This document shows positions 1,845 to 57,697 of a DNA stretch of 64,000 nucleotides, piece after piece. The notes under the pieces were generated by a model. The model searched no databases. It saw only the letters and a program-made list of their open reading frames with translations, and had not been told where the DNA came from. Within the stretch, counting starts at the first letter, position 1. The number at the start of each line of letters is the position of its first letter. The DNA is from Escherichia coli (GTDB lineage Bacteria > Pseudomonadota > Gammaproteobacteria > Enterobacterales > Enterobacteriaceae): the NCBI RefSeq assembly GCF_050920415.1, contig NZ_CP169309.1. One strand, written 5' to 3'. The position numbers and the translations under genes are program-made.

Positions 1845-3779
1845 ATGGCGAAAAACCTAATACTCTGGCTGGTCATTGCCGTTGTGCTGATGTCAGTATT
1901 CCAGAGCTTTGGGCCCAGCGAGTCTAATGGCCGTAAGGTGGATTACTCTACCTTCCTACAAGAGGTCAATAACGACCAGGTTCGTGAAGCGCGTATCAAC
2001 GGACGTGAAATCAACGTTACCAAGAAAGATAGTAACCGTTATACCACTTACATTCCGGTTCAGGATCCGAAATTACTGGATAACCTGTTGACCAAGAACG
2101 TCAAGGTTGTCGGTGAACCGCCTGAAGAACCAAGCCTGCTGGCTTCTATCTTCATCTCCTGGTTCCCGATGCTGTTGCTGATTGGTGTCTGGATCTTCTT
2201 CATGCGTCAAATGCAGGGCGGCGGTGGCAAAGGTGCCATGTCGTTCGGTAAGAGCAAAGCGCGCATGCTGACGGAAGATCAGATCAAAACGACCTTTGCT
2301 GACGTTGCGGGCTGCGACGAAGCAAAAGAAGAAGTTGCTGAACTGGTTGAGTATCTGCGCGAGCCGAGCCGCTTCCAGAAACTCGGCGGTAAGATCCCGA
2401 AAGGCGTCCTGATGGTCGGTCCTCCGGGTACCGGTAAAACGCTGCTGGCGAAAGCGATTGCAGGCGAAGCGAAAGTTCCGTTCTTTACTATCTCCGGTTC
2501 TGACTTCGTAGAAATGTTCGTCGGTGTGGGTGCATCCCGTGTTCGTGACATGTTCGAACAGGCGAAGAAAGCGGCTCCGTGCATCATCTTTATCGATGAA
2601 ATCGACGCCGTAGGCCGCCAGCGTGGCGCAGGTCTGGGCGGTGGTCACGATGAACGTGAACAGACTCTGAACCAGATGCTGGTTGAGATGGATGGCTTCG
2701 AAGGTAACGAAGGTATCATCGTTATCGCTGCGACTAACCGTCCGGACGTTCTCGACCCGGCGCTGCTGCGTCCTGGCCGTTTCGACCGTCAGGTTGTGGT
2801 TGGCTTGCCAGATGTTCGCGGCCGTGAGCAGATTCTGAAAGTTCACATGCGTCGCGTACCATTGGCACCCGATATCGACGCGGCAATCATTGCCCGTGGT
2901 ACTCCTGGTTTCTCCGGTGCTGACCTGGCGAACCTGGTGAACGAAGCGGCACTGTTCGCTGCTCGTGGCAACAAACGTGTTGTGTCGATGGTTGAGTTCG
3001 AGAAAGCGAAAGACAAAATCATGATGGGTGCGGAACGTCGCTCCATGGTGATGACGGAAGCGCAAAAAGAATCGACTGCTTACCACGAAGCAGGTCACGC
3101 GATTATCGGTCGCCTGGTGCCGGAACACGATCCGGTGCACAAAGTAACGATTATCCCGCGCGGTCGTGCGCTGGGTGTGACCTTCTTCTTGCCTGAGGGC
3201 GACGCAATCAGCGCCAGCCGTCAGAAACTGGAAAGCCAGATTTCTACGCTGTACGGCGGTCGTCTGGCTGAAGAGATCATCTACGGGCCGGAACATGTTT
3301 CTACCGGGGCGTCCAACGATATTAAAGTTGCGACCAACCTGGCGCGTAACATGGTTACCCAGTGGGGCTTCTCTGAGAAACTCGGTCCGCTGCTGTATGC
3401 GGAAGAAGAAGGTGAAGTGTTCCTCGGTCGTAGCGTAGCGAAAGCGAAACATATGTCCGATGAAACGGCACGCATCATCGACCAGGAAGTGAAAGCACTG
3501 ATCGAGCGTAACTATAATCGTGCGCGTCAGCTTCTGACCGACAACATGGATATTCTGCATGCGATGAAAGATGCTCTCATGAAATATGAGACTATCGACG
3601 CACCGCAGATTGATGACCTGATGGCACGTCGCGATGTACGTCCGCCAGCGGGCTGGGAAGAACCAGGCGCTTCTAACAATTCTGGCGACAATGGTAGTCC
3701 AAAGGCTCCGCGTCCGGTTGATGAACCGCGTACGCCGAACCCGGGTAACACCATGTCAGAGCAGTTAGGCGACAAGTAA
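1845..3779 (+). CDS. ftsH: ATP-dependent zinc metalloprotease FtsH
   Basis: 644 aa from [10 protein letters not shown]; Walker [12 protein letters not shown] region, HEAGH zinc motif; track ORF starts 9 nt upstream at TTG. Confidence 0.95.
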
Positions 3780-6621: not shown

Positions 6622-6708
6622 GCCGAGGTGGTGGAATTGGTAGACACGCTACCTTGAGGTGGTAGTGCCCAATAGGGCTTACGGGTTCAAGTCCCGTCCT
6701 CGGTACCA
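6622..6708 (+). tRNA. leuU: tRNA-Leu (anticodon GAG)
   Basis: GCCGAGGTGGTGGAATTGGTAGACACGCTACCTTGAGGTGGTAG...GGTTCAAGTCCCGTCCTCGGTACCA, 87 nt with long variable arm and encoded CCA. Confidence 0.95.
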
Positions 6709-12616: not shown

Positions 12617-12693
<77 letters not shown>

Positions 12694-12815
12694 CTTTCCC
12701 TTAGAGTCCTTTTTCAAATATACTGTGAAGACTTCGGCCTTCGTAGTGGGATTTGAAAAAATCCTTCTGGAAAGTGCTCCAGACCGCAGTTGCGGTTATA
12801 GGGTTCAGTTATATA

Positions 12816-12885
12816 AAGCCCCGATTTATCGGGGTTTTTTGTTATCTGACTACAGAATAACTGGGCTTTAGGCCCTTTTTTTATG
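12816..12885 (+). terminator. two tandem hairpin-U tract terminators/attenuators between metY and rimP
   Basis: aaagccccgatttatcggggttttttg and gggctttaggcccttttttt. Confidence 0.65.
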
Positions 12886-17564: not shown

Positions 17565-17581
17565 GGTTTTTAGGGTTCTAT

Positions 17582-17650
17582 GCGGGATAAGGCGTTTACG
17601 CCGCATCCGGCATGGATTGCCTGATGCGACGCTGGCGCGTCTTATCAGGC
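17582..17650. repeat. REP (repetitive extragenic palindromic) elements
   Basis: gcgggataaggcgtttacgccgcatccggca and gcctgatgcgacgctggcgcgtcttatcaggc. Confidence 0.8.
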
Positions 17651-17685
17651 TACGTGAACAGCCCTTCTAACTGAAATTAATTTTA

Positions 17686-19124: not shown

Positions 19125-19490
<366 letters not shown>

Positions 19491-19506
19491 TTCTTGCGAG
19501 TTTCAG

Positions 19507-19534
19507 AAAAGGGGCCTGAGTGGCCCCTTTTTTC
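19507..19534 (+). terminator. rpsO rho-independent terminator
   Basis: aaaaggggcctgagtggccccttttttc. Confidence 0.8.
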
Positions 19535-19735
19535 AAACTGACGGCAGCAATTCACTGGAAACTAATGTATTGTTGCTATGAATGATCTTCCGTTGCAGAG
19601 GTTCGCGCGGCTAATGAGAGGCTTTACCCACATTGGGCTGGGTTAGGGTTGTCATTAGTCGCGAGGATGCGCAGAAGATCGGGTATTAACACCAGTGCCG
19701 TAAGGTGCTGTCTAAGAAAGAGAAAGGATATTACA

Positions 19736-33816: not shown

Positions 33817-33998
33817 CATGTCGGATGCGGCGTAAACGCCTTATCCGACCTACGGTTTGCATCGTTGCAGGCCTGATAAGACGCGGCAAGCGTCGCATCA
33901 GGCAACGGCAGTCGGATGCGGCGCAGGCGCCTTATCCGACCTACGGTTTGTGTCGTGTAGGCCTGATAAGACGCGGCAAGCGTCGCATCAGGCATTAC
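33817..33998. repeat. BIME/REP cluster (about 4 REP units)
   Basis: Alternating gtcggatgcggcg...cgccttatccgac and gcctgataagacgcggcaagcgtcgcatcaggc palindromes. Confidence 0.9.
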
Positions 33999-43982: not shown

Positions 43983-45116
43983 TCAAAACGAAGCTAATTG
44001 ACCCTGAATCCAGATTTGTTGCACATGCAGTCCGCTATCCAGCGCAACGACGCTGGCGCGTTTGCCCGGTTTAAGTGATCCCAAAACACCATCAACACCC
44101 AGCATTCGCGCCGGATGCAGCGACGCCATATGGATGGCTTCCGCTGGCGTTACGCCCGTCAGCTCGACCATATTGCGAACAGCCGCATCAACAGACAGCG
44201 TACTGCCCGCCAGTCCACCGGACGCGGTACGGACAACGCCGTCGTGCATCTGCACCTCTTCACCACATAACGTATAGCGACCATCCGGCATCCCGGCTGC
44301 CTGCATCGCGTCGGTGATGAGCACGATTCTCTCTTTCGCACAGCAACAACACAGCGACATCGCCGCCGGATGTACATGATGACCATCGGCTATCAGTTCC
44401 AGCCAGGCGCGCTTGTCCGTTAATCCTGCGCCAACCATTCCCGGTTCGCGGTGATGTAAACCTGTCATCCCGTTATAGCAATGCACCAGGCCGTCGGCAC
44501 CAGCGTCAAACGCGGCGCGGGTTTGTTGCCAGGTTGCTGCGCTATGTCCCAGCATTACCCGCACGTTCTGCTGTTTAAGATGACGAATGGCTTGTAACGC
44601 GCCCGTTTTTTCCGGTGCCAGCGCCACCACGCGCAAGGTATGCCGTGAAACAGCAATCAATTGATCCAGCTCGGCAATTTCCAGCTCGCGAAACAGCTCC
44701 GGCGGATGTGCGCCTTTATTCTGCGGCGTGAAGTACGGTCCTTCGAGATAACTCCCCAGCACTTGCGCACCAGGTCCACCGCGCTGGCAGCGTAGAGCAA
44801 TACGTTCCAGCGCCGCATGAATGGTATTAAGCGGCGCGGTTACGGTAGTCGGCAACCAACTGCCGACACCTTCCCGTGCCTTGTGCATTGCCAGCTTGTC
44901 GAGCACATCCGGCGCGTCATCCATAACATCAACGCCCGCACCACCGTGTACATGGGTATCGATATAAGCGGGGCAGAGCAGTTCCGCATCGCGTTCAGCC
45001 ACGCCCACTGGAATCGGTTCGATTGCTGCAATTACACCGTCAGCAATATGCAACTGATGATCATCAAGCCAGCCCTCCTCAGTCAGCAGCCTTCTGGCGC
45101 GCAGAACGTGTGTCAT
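43983..45116 (-). CDS. agaA: N-acetylgalactosamine-6-phosphate deacetylase AgaA (full length)
   Basis: 377 aa from MTHVLRARRLL; NagA-like amidohydrolase. Confidence 0.9.
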   Translation of the reverse strand: MTHVLRARRLLTEEGWLDDHQLHIADGVIAAIEPIPVGVAERDAELLCPAYIDTHVHGGAGVDVMDDAPDVLDKLAMHKAREGVGSWLPTTVTAPLNTIHAALERIALRCQRGGPGAQVLGSYLEGPYFTPQNKGAHPPELFRELEIAELDQLIAVSRHTLRVVALAPEKTGALQAIRHLKQQNVRVMLGHSAATWQQTRAAFDAGADGLVHCYNGMTGLHHREPGMVGAGLTDKRAWLELIADGHHVHPAAMSLCCCCAKERIVLITDAMQAAGMPDGRYTLCGEEVQMHDGVVRTASGGLAGSTLSVDAAVRNMVELTGVTPAEAIHMASLHPARMLGVDGVLGSLKPGKRASVVALDSGLHVQQIWIQGQLASF

Positions 45117-45547
45117 ATTCCTTCCTCGACCGGACATTCTTCATGGCAGCGGCCTAACTCGTCCACCAGACTGGTCAGCCCACGGTGTCCACTCTCCAGC
45201 GCCTGTACACGGAATTCTTCACCGCTTAACCCTTCGCGCTCCAGCACCATTTCCAGTAACAGTTGCAAATTGGTGCCGGTGATCACTTCATAGCCCGGTT
45301 TTTGCATCGCCAGCGTTGAAGCCACGCGAAACGGTGTGCCGCCCAGCAAATCTGTCAGAAAAACAATGCCGTCTTCACAATCCAGTTTGGCAATGGCTTC
45401 TTCAAGCTGCGATGTAAGCAGCGCAGTGCTTGAGGTTTCCGGAAAATCAATGGCGATAAACTGCGACTGCTCGCCGAGGATTTGCTTCATTGCTTTTTCC
45501 ATGCCGCTGGCAAATCCGCCATGCCCTGTCAAAATAATACTTAACAT
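45113..45547 (-). CDS. agaF: PTS mannose-family IIA component
   Basis: 144-aa ORF MLSIILTGHGGFASGMEKAMKQILGEQ... Confidence 0.88.
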   Translation of the reverse strand: MLSIILTGHGGFASGMEKAMKQILGEQSQFIAIDFPETSSTALLTSQLEEAIAKLDCEDGIVFLTDLLGGTPFRVASTLAMQKPGYEVITGTNLQLLLEMVLEREGLSGEEFRVQALESGHRGLTSLVDELGRCHEECPVEEGI

Positions 45548-45564
45548 CTAATACCTCATTGTAT

Positions 45565-46449
45565 TTAAAGGAAATGACAGAATTTACCGACGATGCCAAG
45601 AACCACGGTAACCGCAATCAGGCGCAGCGGACTCCAGCCGCGGCGTACCAGCCAGAACATGGTCAGGGTGTAGACCAGCGGTAAGAAGGCAGGCATCAGT
45701 TTGTCGATAACGTCAGCCTGCAGCTTAACCACTGCGTCGCCCGCCGTGATTTCCAGCGTGGTGCTTAAACGAACATAGGTTGCCACCAGCGCGCCGATCA
45801 CCGTCATCCCAACGATAGACGCTGCATGGCCGACTTTTTTGGTATTCGCTTTAATGAGTGGGATCGCCGCCACGCCCATGCGGTAAGCATAATGCGCCAG
45901 ACCAAAACGCAGCCCCAGGTGTACCACGTTGAACAGCACAATAAAGACGACTGCGCCAAGAATAGAGCCTTGCAATGCCAGACTGGCACCAATCCCGCCA
46001 CAAATCGGCAGTAACGTTAGCCAGAACATGGCATCGCCAATCCCGCCGAGCGGCGCACCGACGGCAATTTTGGTGCTCTGAATACTGTTAACGTCCTGCT
46101 TAGAACGCTCCATCGCGAGGATAATGCCAATAACAAACGTCACCAGAAATGGATGGGTATTGAAGAAACCCATATGTCCCTTCATGGCGCGCGCCAGGTC
46201 GCGTTTATTAGTGTGGATCTTTTTCAGAGCAGGCAGCAGACCGTACAACCAGCCGGAAGCCTGCATACGCTCGTAGTTAAAAGACGCTTGTAACAGCATG
46301 GAACGCCAGGCGACGCGGTTGATATCTTTTTTTGTTAGCTCCGCGCCAATGCTCTGATCTTCGTATACGTTTTCATTGACGCCTGTCAGTAGTGTCTCTT
46401 CATTTTCGCTGACGTTCGGCAGGGTGGTTTGATTAGATGCCATCTTCAA
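45565..46449 (-). CDS. agaE: PTS mannose-family IID component (N-acetylgalactosamine-specific)
   Basis: about 292-aa ORF, paralogous to agaD. Confidence 0.88.
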   Translation of the reverse strand: MKMASNQTTLPNVSENEETLLTGVNENVYEDQSIGAELTKKDINRVAWRSMLLQASFNYERMQASGWLYGLLPALKKIHTNKRDLARAMKGHMGFFNTHPFLVTFVIGIILAMERSKQDVNSIQSTKIAVGAPLGGIGDAMFWLTLLPICGGIGASLALQGSILGAVVFIVLFNVVHLGLRFGLAHYAYRMGVAAIPLIKANTKKVGHAASIVGMTVIGALVATYVRLSTTLEITAGDAVVKLQADVIDKLMPAFLPLVYTLTMFWLVRRGWSPLRLIAVTVVLGIVGKFCHFL

Positions 46450-47212
46450 ATTCCTCTTTCTGTGCCGCAGGTTGAGTCGGTTCAGGAGATTTACGCAGCA
46501 GGTCGATCAGCGCCATCGCCAGCGCGGCGGCAGCAATAGCCAGCACCGGTAACTTGAGCCAGGCGGCGGCAACGAAGCCCAGGATGAAGTAGGGGATATA
46601 GACGTTTTTCATCATGATTTTCAGCAGCACGGCAAAACCGATTGCTGGCATGATGCCGCCCGCGACGCCAAGGCCGTCGATTAACCGTTGCGGCAGGACA
46701 TCAATGATGGTTTTTGCATGCTCCGCGCCGAAGTAGATAGGCAGGAAAGCGCAGAGAAAATAGAACGTGCCGAGTGCCAGCAATGCCAGATAGTTCACGC
46801 GTTCAATGCCGCGAGTATCGGCGTTCTCCGCCATCCGGTCGCAGCGGGACATCACGCCAGACATCACCGAGAACAGGAAGGTAATCCCCATCTGTACTGC
46901 GACAGCGAAAGGTACGGCGACACCGACCGCGACATCCGGTTTCACACCAGTAGTAATGGCAAATGCCGTGCCGACGATAGTTCCGATAATCACGTTAGGC
47001 GGCTGTGCGCCCGCCAGTGGTGCCAGCCCCATCCACACCAGTTCCAGCGTACCGCCGGTTAAAATACCGGTATGCAGATCGCCAAGCACCAACCCAACTA
47101 ACGGGCCGAGGACCACCGGGCGGTGCATATGGGTCAAGCCGTTAAACATATCCAGGCCAGCGATAAAGGCGATAATGCCCAACGCAAATGCCTGCAACAG
47201 ACTGATTTCCAT
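46433..47212 (-). CDS. agaW: PTS mannose-family IIC component (N-acetylgalactosamine-specific), full length
   Basis: 259-aa membrane ORF, paralogous to agaC. Confidence 0.88.
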   Translation of the reverse strand: MEISLLQAFALGIIAFIAGLDMFNGLTHMHRPVVLGPLVGLVLGDLHTGILTGGTLELVWMGLAPLAGAQPPNVIIGTIVGTAFAITTGVKPDVAVGVAVPFAVAVQMGITFLFSVMSGVMSRCDRMAENADTRGIERVNYLALLALGTFYFLCAFLPIYFGAEHAKTIIDVLPQRLIDGLGVAGGIMPAIGFAVLLKIMMKNVYIPYFILGFVAAAWLKLPVLAIAAAALAMALIDLLRKSPEPTQPAAQKEEFEDGI

Positions 47213-49247: not shown

Positions 49248-50057
49248 ATGAGTAATACCGACGCTTCAGGCGAGAAGCGAGTGACAGGCACCAGCGAGCG
49301 ACGAGAACAAATCATTCAGCGCCTGCGACAGCAAGGGAGTGTGCAGGTTAACGATCTGTCGGCATTGTATGGCGTATCTACTGTGACGATCCGCAACGAT
49401 CTGGCGTTTCTGGAAAAGCAGGGGATCGCTGTGCGGGCCTATGGCGGCGCGTTGATCTGCGATAGCACGACGCCGTCAGTCGAGCCATCAGTGGAAGATA
49501 AAAGCGCGCTGAACACTGCGATGAAACGCAGCGTTGCGAAAGCTGCCGTTGAGTTGATTCAGCCAGGTCATCGGGTGATCCTCGATTCCGGGACCACCAC
49601 TTTTGAGATTGCTCGTCTGATGCGCAAGCACACTGACGTAATTGCGATGACCAATGGTATGAACGTAGCCAATGCACTGCTGGAAGCAGAAGGCGTTGAA
49701 CTTCTTATGACCGGCGGGCATCTGCGGCGTCAGTCGCAATCTTTTTACGGCGATCAGGCTGAACAATCGCTACAAAATTACCACTTTGATATGCTTTTTC
49801 TCGGCGTAGATGCGATCGATCTGGAGCGCGGCGTCAGCACGCATAATGAAGATGAAGCCCGTTTAAACCGTCGGATGTGCGAAGTTGCGGAACGGATCAT
49901 TGTGGTCACCGATTCCAGTAAGTTCAACCGTTCCAGTTTACATAAGATCATTGATACTCAACGTATCGACATGATCATTGTTGATGAAGGCATTCCTGCG
50001 GATAGTCTGGAAGGACTGCGAAAGGCTGGGGTTGAAGTGATTCTGGTCGGGGAGTGA
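49248..50057 (+). CDS. agaR: DeoR-family transcriptional repressor AgaR
   Basis: 269-aa ORF with N-terminal HTH and DeoR C-terminal domain. Confidence 0.92.
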
Positions 50058-50111
50058 GAAAGGGGGCCCGCTGGTCAACACCAATGTGTTCGGCGGGCAT
50101 TGTGAACACCA

Positions 50112-50576
50112 TCAATGGTTTTCTTCTGTCTCTTGGGTGAGGCTTTCCCAGCCGGCAGGAGGATGTCCTCTTTTTAACATTTTACTGAATACGGTATAGG
50201 CATCTGTTTTTTTACCGTAGGTGCGCAGCGTGTTTTCATCGTTCATCCATCCCAGAATGATGACTTTCTCTTTTTCACTGTAACGAAAGAAGAGACGATA
50301 GCGACCAGCACCAAATTTTACCCGTGACCAGTCTTTATTTTTCCCAGAGCCTAACGACTTGCCATGACGGAATGCCGGTGATGATGGATTGACCGTGATA
50401 TGCTCCTCAATCACTTTATGGACCACCGCCAATAACTTTGTGGCAGCTTTTCTCTGATAATTTTCAGGATCTTTTCCCTTTAATGCCTCGACTTCGGCAA
50501 CTAAAGCATCGTAGGTTTCCTGAAAACAGGGATGAGCATATAGCGCCCAACCATTAACCCTTTGTGGAAAATCCAT
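50112..50576 (-). CDS. yhaV: type II toxin YhaV (ribosome-dependent mRNA interferase)
   Basis: 154-aa ORF MDFPQRVNGWALYAHPCFQETYDALVAEVEALKGKDPEN... Confidence 0.9.
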   Translation of the reverse strand: MDFPQRVNGWALYAHPCFQETYDALVAEVEALKGKDPENYQRKAATKLLAVVHKVIEEHITVNPSSPAFRHGKSLGSGKNKDWSRVKFGAGRYRLFFRYSEKEKVIILGWMNDENTLRTYGKKTDAYTVFSKMLKRGHPPAGWESLTQETEENH

Positions 50577-50911
50577 TATTCGTCGTCGCCAATCTCATCG
50601 TCAATGTTGACGTCCATGCCAGCGACAAGTTTCTTTCCTTGTTGAATGTCGAATGGACGAGTTTTTTGCGGGTTATTCTGGATATCTGCATCCAGAAAAC
50701 GCAAAAATGCATTCATAGTATGATCCTCCTGTTCATCTCCCAGTCGGCACATAAATACTTGCCCACCAGGCAGAATTTCGTAATGAATGCTGTCCAGGCC
50801 TGGCTTCAGTTTTAAGGCCTCACGCACTGGCGCGGGGATAGTTGTTTGTCCGCGTATCGTGACCTTTGATTCAGTGGTCAGTACAGCGTTAGAGCGAGCA
50901 TTAGCGGGCAT
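50576..50911 (-). CDS. prlF: antitoxin PrlF (SohA), AbrB/SpoVT-type
   Basis: 111-aa ORF with acidic C-terminus; stop overlaps yhaV start by 1 nt. Confidence 0.9.
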   Translation of the reverse strand: MPANARSNAVLTTESKVTIRGQTTIPAPVREALKLKPGLDSIHYEILPGGQVFMCRLGDEQEDHTMNAFLRFLDADIQNNPQKTRPFDIQQGKKLVAGMDVNIDDEIGDDE

Positions 50912-51059
50912 TATTTACTGTCCTTTTACAGCCTGTTTTCTGCTCAAATTATAAGCTTGAACTAAGGTAATGCAAATGCATTATTAATGGATGTGTGGAC
51001 TTTAAACAATAAAAACATGGCACTAAGGCCATGTTTTGCGAGGGACGTTCCAAAAGAAA

Positions 51060-52631
51060 TCAAGTCACCGGTGCCGGGTTAAACACCGCCAGCTGGTTAT
51101 GCAGTCCCCATTGATCTGAGAAGGTTTTCTTCTTCCCGCTGGCGACGTCGAGAATAAAATGGAACAATTTCCAGCCCACCTCTTCAATAGTTTCTTCGCC
51201 GGTAGCGATGGTGCCCGCATTAATATCCATTAAATCAAACCAGCGGTTCGCCAGCTCGGTGCGGGTCGCCATTTTAATGACGGGTACCGCCATCAGGCCG
51301 TACGGCGTACCACGGCCGGTCGTAAACACTTGCACGGTAATCCCCGAAGCCACCTGTTGCGTGCCACAGACAAAATCGCTGGCTGGCGTCGCAGCGTAAA
51401 TTAATCCGCGTTTAGTCGGGCGTTGACCGGGCGACAGCACTTCAACAATTGCACTTTTACCCGATTTAGCAATGGAGCCGAGCGCTTTCTCCACCACATT
51501 TGCCAGACCGCCTTTCTTGTTGCCCGGCGAAGGGTTGGCGCTGCGGTCGGTTTTTCCCATATTGAGATAGTTATCGTACCACTCCATCTCCTCCAGCAGC
51601 CGTTTGCCGACCTCTTCGTTCACTGCGCGCGGCGTCAGCAGATGGATCGCGTCACGCACTTCTGTGACTTCCGAGAACATCACCGTTGCACCGCAGCGCA
51701 CCAGTAGATCAGATGCATAACCCACGGCTGGATTTGCCGTTACGCCAGAAAACGCATCGCTGCCACCGCACTGCATGCCGACAACCAGTTCTGAAGCCGG
51801 ACAGGTTTCTCGCTGACGTTGATTCAGTTTTTGTAGATGGCGTTCGGCGACCTGCAAAATATCCTCGACCATGGACTGAAAACCGACATGCTTTTCATCC
51901 TGCAAACTGACAATGCTGGCGCTTTCTACTGGAATAGCTTGCACATCATCCGTTCCAGTCAGCAGGCGTTCAGGCTGCAACTTTTCACAACCCAGACCAA
52001 TCACCATTACTTCGCCGCCAAAGTTAGGGTTCAGCGAAATATTGTGAATGGTACGAATAGGCACAACTGCCGCCGGTGCGTTAATCGCCACGCCACAACC
52101 GTACAAATGATTCAGCCCCACCACGCCATCGACGTTCGGGTATTTCGGTAGCAGATCGCGTTCAATGATTTTTACTACATAGTCCACCACGCCTGCCACA
52201 CAGTGGACGCTGGTGGTGATGCCGAGCAGGTTTTTGGTGCCCACGCTGCCATCGGCATTGCGATAGCCCTCAAAGGTGTATCCTTCCAGTGGCGGTAAGG
52301 GGGCCGGGACTTTAGTTGCCAGTGGCAGCGTGTGTAACGGTGGCGCTTCCGGTAGTACAACCATTGATTCGTCGATCCAGCTTCCGCGTGGGATTGCGCG
52401 CACGGCGTAACCAATCACTTCACCATAACGAATAATTTCACCATTAGCCGGAATGTCCAGCAATGCGACTTTATGCCCCTGGGGAATATGTTCAATTAAT
52501 TCCAGCCCATCCGGAAAACGCGTTCCTGCTTTCAGGCCATTATCATTAACAATAATTGCCACATTATCTGTGTCGTGAACTTTTATATAAAACGCAGTTG
52601 GCGTTTCTTGTCTGATTTCGATGTTGGCCAT
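51060..52631 (-). CDS. garD: galactarate dehydratase
   Basis: 523-aa [40 protein letters not shown]... Confidence 0.93.

Positions 52632-57320: not shown

Positions 57321-57697
<377 letters not shown>

Follow-up and report, generated by a model that had tools for sequence, protein, structure and literature searches.

The 64-kb stretch of Escherichia coli DNA analyzed in this study (hereafter, the window) carries the chromosomal prlF-yhaV (sohA-yhaV) type II toxin-antitoxin operon in an intact and probably functional form, working by the mechanism proposed below; I put the probability of this reading at about 95%. The operon consists of two minus-strand ORFs starting with ATG. These are prlF (sohA), encoding the 111-residue antitoxin PrlF (50576-50911), and yhaV, encoding the 154-residue toxin YhaV, a predicted ribonuclease of the RelE/ParE superfamily (50112-50576). 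The left neighbor is agaR (49248-50057, plus strand), identified by the NCBIfam AgaR equivalog NF040755 with 465 bits, and the right neighbor is garD for galactarate dehydratase (51060-52631, minus strand), identified by TIGR03248 with 940 bits. In K-12 MG1655 the gene order is garP, garD, prlF, yhaV, agaR, and kbaZ, and a synteny comparison revealed a like arrangement in the window. Thus, the location given in the initial annotation, between agaR and garD as in K-12, is correct, and this placement makes the pair orthologous to b3129-b3130. The DNA from 50000 to 51100 is 100% identical to that of E. coli MFDS1022581, in which the gene order is also alike and the two genes bear the RefSeq labels prlF and yhaV. 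These names, together with the Pfam and NCBIfam family matches described below, bear out the view that this is a known system.

The two genes are arranged bicistronically with the antitoxin gene first. On the minus strand, the junction reads GACGAATAATGGAT, which can be parsed as GACGAA-TAATG-GAT; the TAA of prlF and the ATG of yhaV share a single nucleotide, base 50576, within the TAATG motif (50574-50578). Both the ORF list and the junction sequence agree with the protein lengths and the one-nucleotide overlap recorded initially. It is likely, judging from the sequence, that the TAATG overlap is the site of translational coupling of yhaV to prlF. Two opposite-strand ORFs within the cassette, of 83 residues (50564-50815) and 55 residues (50787-50954), were taken as shadow ORFs.

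The initial annotation had called the pair intact and named alignment to the K-12 proteins as the check, with a frameshift or premature stop codon as the result that would overturn the claim. In BLASTP comparisons, PrlF is identical to its K-12 counterpart at 108 of 111 residues (97%), with the substitutions H8N, Q39L, and N88D, and YhaV at 149 of 154 residues (97%), with the substitutions T31A, D142G, T145S, R148Q, and T153N; both alignments are gapless. At the DNA level, a 1021-nt alignment to K-12 running from the garD stop codon to the agaR stop codon contains no indel, no frameshift, and no premature stop codon, and the claim of intactness stands. The eight substitutions all lie outside the invariant and nearly invariant columns of the PrlF and YhaV family alignments that I made. 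Five base changes lie upstream of the ORFs, two of them between the Shine-Dalgarno-like sequence and the ATG of prlF (50912 and 50916) and three upstream of the palindrome discussed below (50992, 50996, and 50999). All the differences from K-12 are ordinary allelic variation. Since the 1021-nt alignment is without an indel, the prlF gene of the window does not have the 7-bp duplication that characterizes prlF1, by which PrlF is truncated and Lon activated (PMC12107188, PMC7781912). The K-12 system itself (b3129-b3130; Schmidt et al. 2007, J Mol Biol 372:894, via PMC7781912) has the same locus, protein lengths, TAATG overlap, promoter, and palindrome.

Family assignment of the antitoxin is firm. 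PrlF matches the Pfam family PF15937 (PrlF_antitoxin) with 139.6 bits against a cut-off of 32, over profile positions 1-99 of 99, and the NCBIfam equivalog NF007429 with 167.6 bits against a cut-off of 125. The protein has an N-terminal AbrB/SpoVT-type DNA-binding domain (approximately residues 14-57), a helical middle part, and a C-terminal tail that ends in DVNIDDEIGDDE; 7 of its final 12 residues are D or E, so the antitoxin C-terminus is strongly acidic, as had been noted. The invariant columns of the family alignment (T18, Q22, T24, P26, R30, L33, D63, L70, L73, and D76) are all untouched by the substitutions. A search of the PDB with the single PrlF sequence found no relative of solved structure. 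In a profile made from 15 PrlF sequences, positions 6-49 matched AbrB-family regulators (E = 4.9e-5) and SpoVT (7e-4), the matches spanning E = 5e-5 to 2e-3. TIGR01439 scored 26.4 bits on PrlF, slightly below its cut-off of 28.3. The AlphaFold2 model of PrlF is moderately confident, with a pLDDT of 74.6 overall and 87-89 over residues 11-50. Over the N-terminal domain, the model can be superposed on SpoVT, AbrB, Abh, and MazE with an rmsd of 1.5-2.6 Å; the Foldseek E-values are weak (0.06-1), the domain being short, while the TM-scores relative to the target are 0.63-0.75 for domain-sized AbrB, Abh, and MazE chains. The profile and the model together argue for a swapped-hairpin N-terminal domain of the AbrB/SpoVT type in PrlF.

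YhaV matches the Pfam family PF11663 (Toxin_YhaV) with 179.5 bits against a cut-off of 35, over profile positions 1-137 of 138. Among 1.84 billion representative proteins, 966 clusters of the YhaV family were found at E <= 0.001, and 60 diverse homologues from this search, 34-56% identical, were aligned. The six invariant columns of this alignment (P64, R94, F96, W110, N112, and R118) are all present in the window protein, and so are the nearly invariant ones, which include W10, G72, W83, R85, K87, L95, F97, D113, D125, Y127, F130, P140, and L146. An AlphaFold2 model built from the 61-sequence alignment has a mean pLDDT of 96.2 and a pTM of 0.90. The top 42 or so Foldseek matches of this model in the PDB are all toxins of the RelE/ParE superfamily (PfiT, HigB2, E. 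coli RelE, M. tuberculosis RelE1 and RelE2, YoeB, and ParE), with TM-scores of up to 0.76 relative to the smaller targets. The model thus indicates that YhaV adopts the RelE/ParE (BECR) ribonuclease fold. Searches of the PDB with the YhaV sequence and with its profile returned no solved-structure relative. ThreeFoil, Zuotin, and Cse2, which appeared in the single-protein and YhaV-profile sequence searches, were dismissed as chance matches. Only the fold comparison and the PrlF profile, not the single-sequence PDB searches, were informative about the folds. PDB entry 2KHE is called a 'YhaV monomer' in PMC7781912, while the fold search lists it as Thermus thermophilus RelE. For specialists, it may be useful to know that sequence searches find no PDB structure of PrlF or YhaV and that 2KHE is mislabeled in the review.

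These fold and profile results agree with published descriptions, in which an AbrB/MazE-like antitoxin has a RelE-like toxin as its partner (PMC7781912, PMC3021852, PMC11980606), a 'hybrid' pairing that has already been noted (PMC3021852, PMC5408214). With RelBE, HigBA, and YoeB-YefM, which are ribosome-dependent mRNA interferase systems of the RelE superfamily, the pair has in common the toxin fold of the YhaV model, the antitoxin-first gene order, and probably autoregulation. However, YhaV is about 60 residues longer than the RelE core of about 90 residues, has additional helices, and matches no PDB chain in sequence, and PrlF is of the AbrB/SpoVT type, while RelB is an RHH protein and HigA an HTH protein. 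MazE, the AbrB-superfamily antitoxin of MazEF, shares the N-terminal swapped-hairpin DNA-binding domain with PrlF, but its partner toxin MazF has the MazF/CcdB fold, whereas YhaV has the RelE fold.

The 148-nt spacer upstream of prlF (50912-51059) is AT-rich and contains several candidate control elements, all on the minus strand. A consensus scan (10/12) predicted a sigma-70 promoter at 50948-50976, with a -35 hexamer TTTGCA (50976-50971), a 17-nt spacer, and a -10 hexamer TATAAT (50953-50948); its sequence is identical in K-12 and in E. albertii. A Shine-Dalgarno-like AAGGA (50915-50922), in the sequence context GTAAAAGGACAGTAAATAATG, probably serves prlF from 9 nt upstream of its ATG. The initial annotation had pointed to the region 50912-51000 as the place to look for a promoter palindrome, and one was found there, at 50968-50983, identical to that of K-12. 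This palindrome, TAATGCATTTGCATTA, is a perfect 7+2+7 repeat, with the arms TAATGCA and TGCATTA around a central TT, and it lies over the -35 hexamer and occurs once in the 64-kb window. The 75-bp stretch that includes it (50917-50991) is base-for-base as in K-12. In K-12, PrlF-YhaV is reported to bind a palindrome within the promoter of prlF (PMC7781912, citing Schmidt et al. 2007); the papers found that mention this palindromic operator do not give its sequence. I infer that the palindrome at 50968-50983 may be the operator. An arm of at least 7 arises in 5.9% of shuffles of the spacer, and the palindrome is not significant alone. No comparable palindrome was found upstream of the approximately 45%-identical plasmid homologues at three loci (L004-L006), whose sequences are highly diverged; the operator thus gains no support from conservation among these plasmid-borne homologues. 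The E. albertii spacer is 100% identical throughout and is therefore uninformative on selective constraint of the palindrome.

On the upstream side, a terminator scan found an intrinsic terminator of garD at 51012-51037, with a 10-bp stem (AAAACATGGC/GCCATGTTTT) followed by a T-run. This predicted terminator would separate the toxin-antitoxin operon from garD transcription. On the downstream side, the scan found no intrinsic terminator after yhaV; a hairpin in the 54-bp yhaV-agaR spacer (z = -1.58) is no better than those of shuffled sequences.

A mechanism can be proposed from these elements. The sigma-70 promoter upstream of prlF would give rise to a bicistronic mRNA, on which translation of yhaV would be coupled to that of prlF via the TAATG overlap. 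PrlF would dimerize through its N-terminal AbrB/SpoVT swapped-hairpin domain, and its C-terminal part would bind and neutralize YhaV, the RelE-fold ribonuclease. The PrlF-YhaV complex would sit on the palindromic operator over the promoter and repress its own transcription. When the labile PrlF is depleted, free YhaV would cut mRNA on the ribosome, leading to translation and growth arrest. In K-12, YhaV is a growth-inhibiting ribonuclease that carries out translation-dependent, frame-biased mRNA cleavage with a preference for G after the cut (PMC8546651, PMC11980606). In an earlier study, YhaV was active in vitro independently of the ribosome (PMC5408214), and the literature is divided on its need for the ribosome (PMC8546651, Table 1). 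K-12 PrlF neutralizes YhaV by forming a PrlF2-YhaV4 complex, which shows cooperative binding to the promoter (PMC7781912), and both the toxicity by RNA cleavage and the neutralization by direct binding are documented for K-12 (PMC7781912, PMC8546651, PMC5408214). Overproduced or mutant PrlF raises Lon activity (PMC12107188). By analogy, the window allele should behave as the K-12 allele does, and YhaV toxicity and its neutralization by PrlF would hold for it as well.

Is the pair intact in sequence and yet decayed or domesticated, with a harmless toxin and with only a regulatory role of PrlF (autorepression and the Lon effect) that matters? Five substitutions distinguish YhaV from the K-12 protein and four of them lie within the final 13 residues, the prlF1 phenotypes act through Lon rather than through YhaV toxicity (PMC12107188, PMC5408214), and the locus is dispensable, as judged from the roughly 5% of complete E. 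coli genomes without a match and from its deletion in strain HH97 (see below). However, all the invariant and nearly invariant residues are kept, including R85, K87, R94, and R118, and the substitutions are at variable positions. Moreover, the DNA alignment shows 8 synonymous and 5 non-synonymous differences from K-12 in yhaV, which fits constraint, and the same allele is common to many genomes at 98-100%. A harmless toxin thus seems very improbable. It is more improbable still, and hardly worth retaining, that the likeness of the two ORFs to PrlF and YhaV is a coincidence or that they were mis-called and that the region is something else; this idea is already refuted by the Pfam E-values of 4e-41 and 4e-53 for the pair, the 97% full-length identity, and the conserved synteny. 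A functional prlF-yhaV operon is thus the reading that I retain.

How widespread is the cassette? Of 5426 complete E. coli genomes, 5161 give a match to the 800-bp cassette; in 5136 genomes this match extends over 80% or more of its length with 97-100% identity, almost always as a single copy. The window-like allele (at least 99% identity) was found in 1338 complete E. coli genomes. In the remaining 5% or so of the genomes the cassette is unmatched. In one strain, HH97 (NZ_CP116409.1), a deletion took yhaV, the greater part of prlF, and the agaR 3′ end; the 96 nt left from the 5′ end of prlF (3469-3564 of the retrieved locus) are annotated as a partial hypothetical protein. Because of the unmatched genomes and the HH97 deletion, the prlF-yhaV module can be regarded as dispensable. 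One 'plasmid' copy in PLSDB (NZ_MG591698.1, 353 kb, labeled as a non-mobilizable E. coli plasmid) was considered and rejected as evidence of mobility; it contains garP-garD-prlF-yhaV-agaR-kbaZ in the chromosomal order. This entry is probably a mislabeled chromosomal segment and is not to be counted as plasmid-borne prlF-yhaV.

Outside the chromosomal locus, family members with about 45% identity were found on conjugative plasmids from Enterobacter, Citrobacter, E. marmotae, and Pantoea, as well as on plasmids of the Roseobacter group and Bradyrhizobium. The Enterobacter, Citrobacter, E. marmotae, and Pantoea pairs belong to the same families and have the same gene order as the window pair. In contrast to the window pair, the genes of the plasmid pairs are about 20 nt apart and do not overlap, and they lack an equivalent upstream palindrome. 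I also scanned genome contigs of other species with a degenerate nucleotide pattern based on two conserved motifs of YhaV, which yielded 55 loci, a sample that is not a census. According to my own ORF-calling script, a same-strand ORF ends at the toxin start in 52 of the 54 usable loci. About 40-45 of these 52 ORFs are PrlF-like, and the commonest junction is a 1-nt overlap. The only Escherichia returned by the scan was E. albertii; the E. coli representative is missing, though K-12 fits the pattern, and this representative either differs in these codons or is without the cassette. Another group that was observed in the scan consists of 28 loci in 28 beta- and gammaproteobacterial species (L011, L013, L017, L018, L020, L023, L025, L031, L032, L038-L041, L043-L045, L047, L049-L052, L054, L056-L060, and L062), whose YhaV-family toxins are at least 90% identical to one another and have matching PrlF-like antitoxins. 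The host species include members of Pseudomonas, Stutzerimonas, Acidovorax, Thiobacillus, Nitrosomonas, Azoarcus, Luteimonas, and Kerstersia. Such similarity across hosts implies that a PrlF/YhaV variant may be carried by a broad-host-range mobile element.

The only close orthologue retrieved from outside E. coli is that of the E. albertii type strain NBRC 107761, and its similarity to the window is uneven. The flanking genes kbaZ, agaR, garD, and garP are 88-92% identical, while within the cassette yhaV is 98.5%, prlF 99.4%, and the prlF-garD spacer 100% identical (approximately 99.5% with the promoter). In an approximately 870-bp tract comprising the promoter, prlF, and the 5′ three-quarters of yhaV (window 50194-51062; positions 2582-3450 of the E. 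albertii sequence), there are 4 mismatches in 869 positions, in contrast to 285 in 2515 (11.3%) in the flanking agaR and garD; the binomial probability of this contrast is 2.7e-39. In the same tract, K-12 differs from the window at 17 of 869 positions and is thus farther from the window than E. albertii is. Therefore, the E. albertii allele nests within the diversity of E. coli. The pattern suggests that E. coli and E. albertii recently exchanged a tract hardly larger than the toxin-antitoxin cassette, and it seems somewhat more probable than not that homologous recombination carries prlF-yhaV from one Escherichia species to another as a unit of its own. No paper on an exchange of prlF-yhaV between E. 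coli and E. albertii was found in the literature.

Some other features of the window were observed beside the operon. K-12 lacks a segment of about 2.3 kb that lies at 44541-46837 of the window and is part of the aga (N-acetylgalactosamine) cluster, and its agaW and agaA bear pseudogene annotations. The strain of the window thus appears to have a complete agaVWEF-agaA region. Elsewhere in the window, matches above the Rfam gathering thresholds were found for RNase P RNA (rnpB), the SraG sRNA, the S15 leader, the rimP leader, two naRNA4 (REP-like) elements, and two tRNAs, their spans being 57321-57697, 19506-19677, 19163-19277, 12782-12882, 17581-17651, 33870-33941, 6622-6705, and 12617-12690.

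PrlF-YhaV has been a known and characterized type II module of E. coli since 2007, and the copy in the window is an ordinary allele in its usual place. What chromosomal toxin-antitoxin modules do in the physiology of the cell is disputed. The finding has little import beyond correct annotation, but the record of an intact pair serves toxin-antitoxin inventories, and it aids the reading of prlF mutations such as the Lon-activating 7-bp duplication, which is recurrent in evolution experiments and absent here. If the exchange with E. albertii is true, it could reflect either selfish spread or selective replacement of toxin-antitoxin alleles at a fixed chromosomal site.
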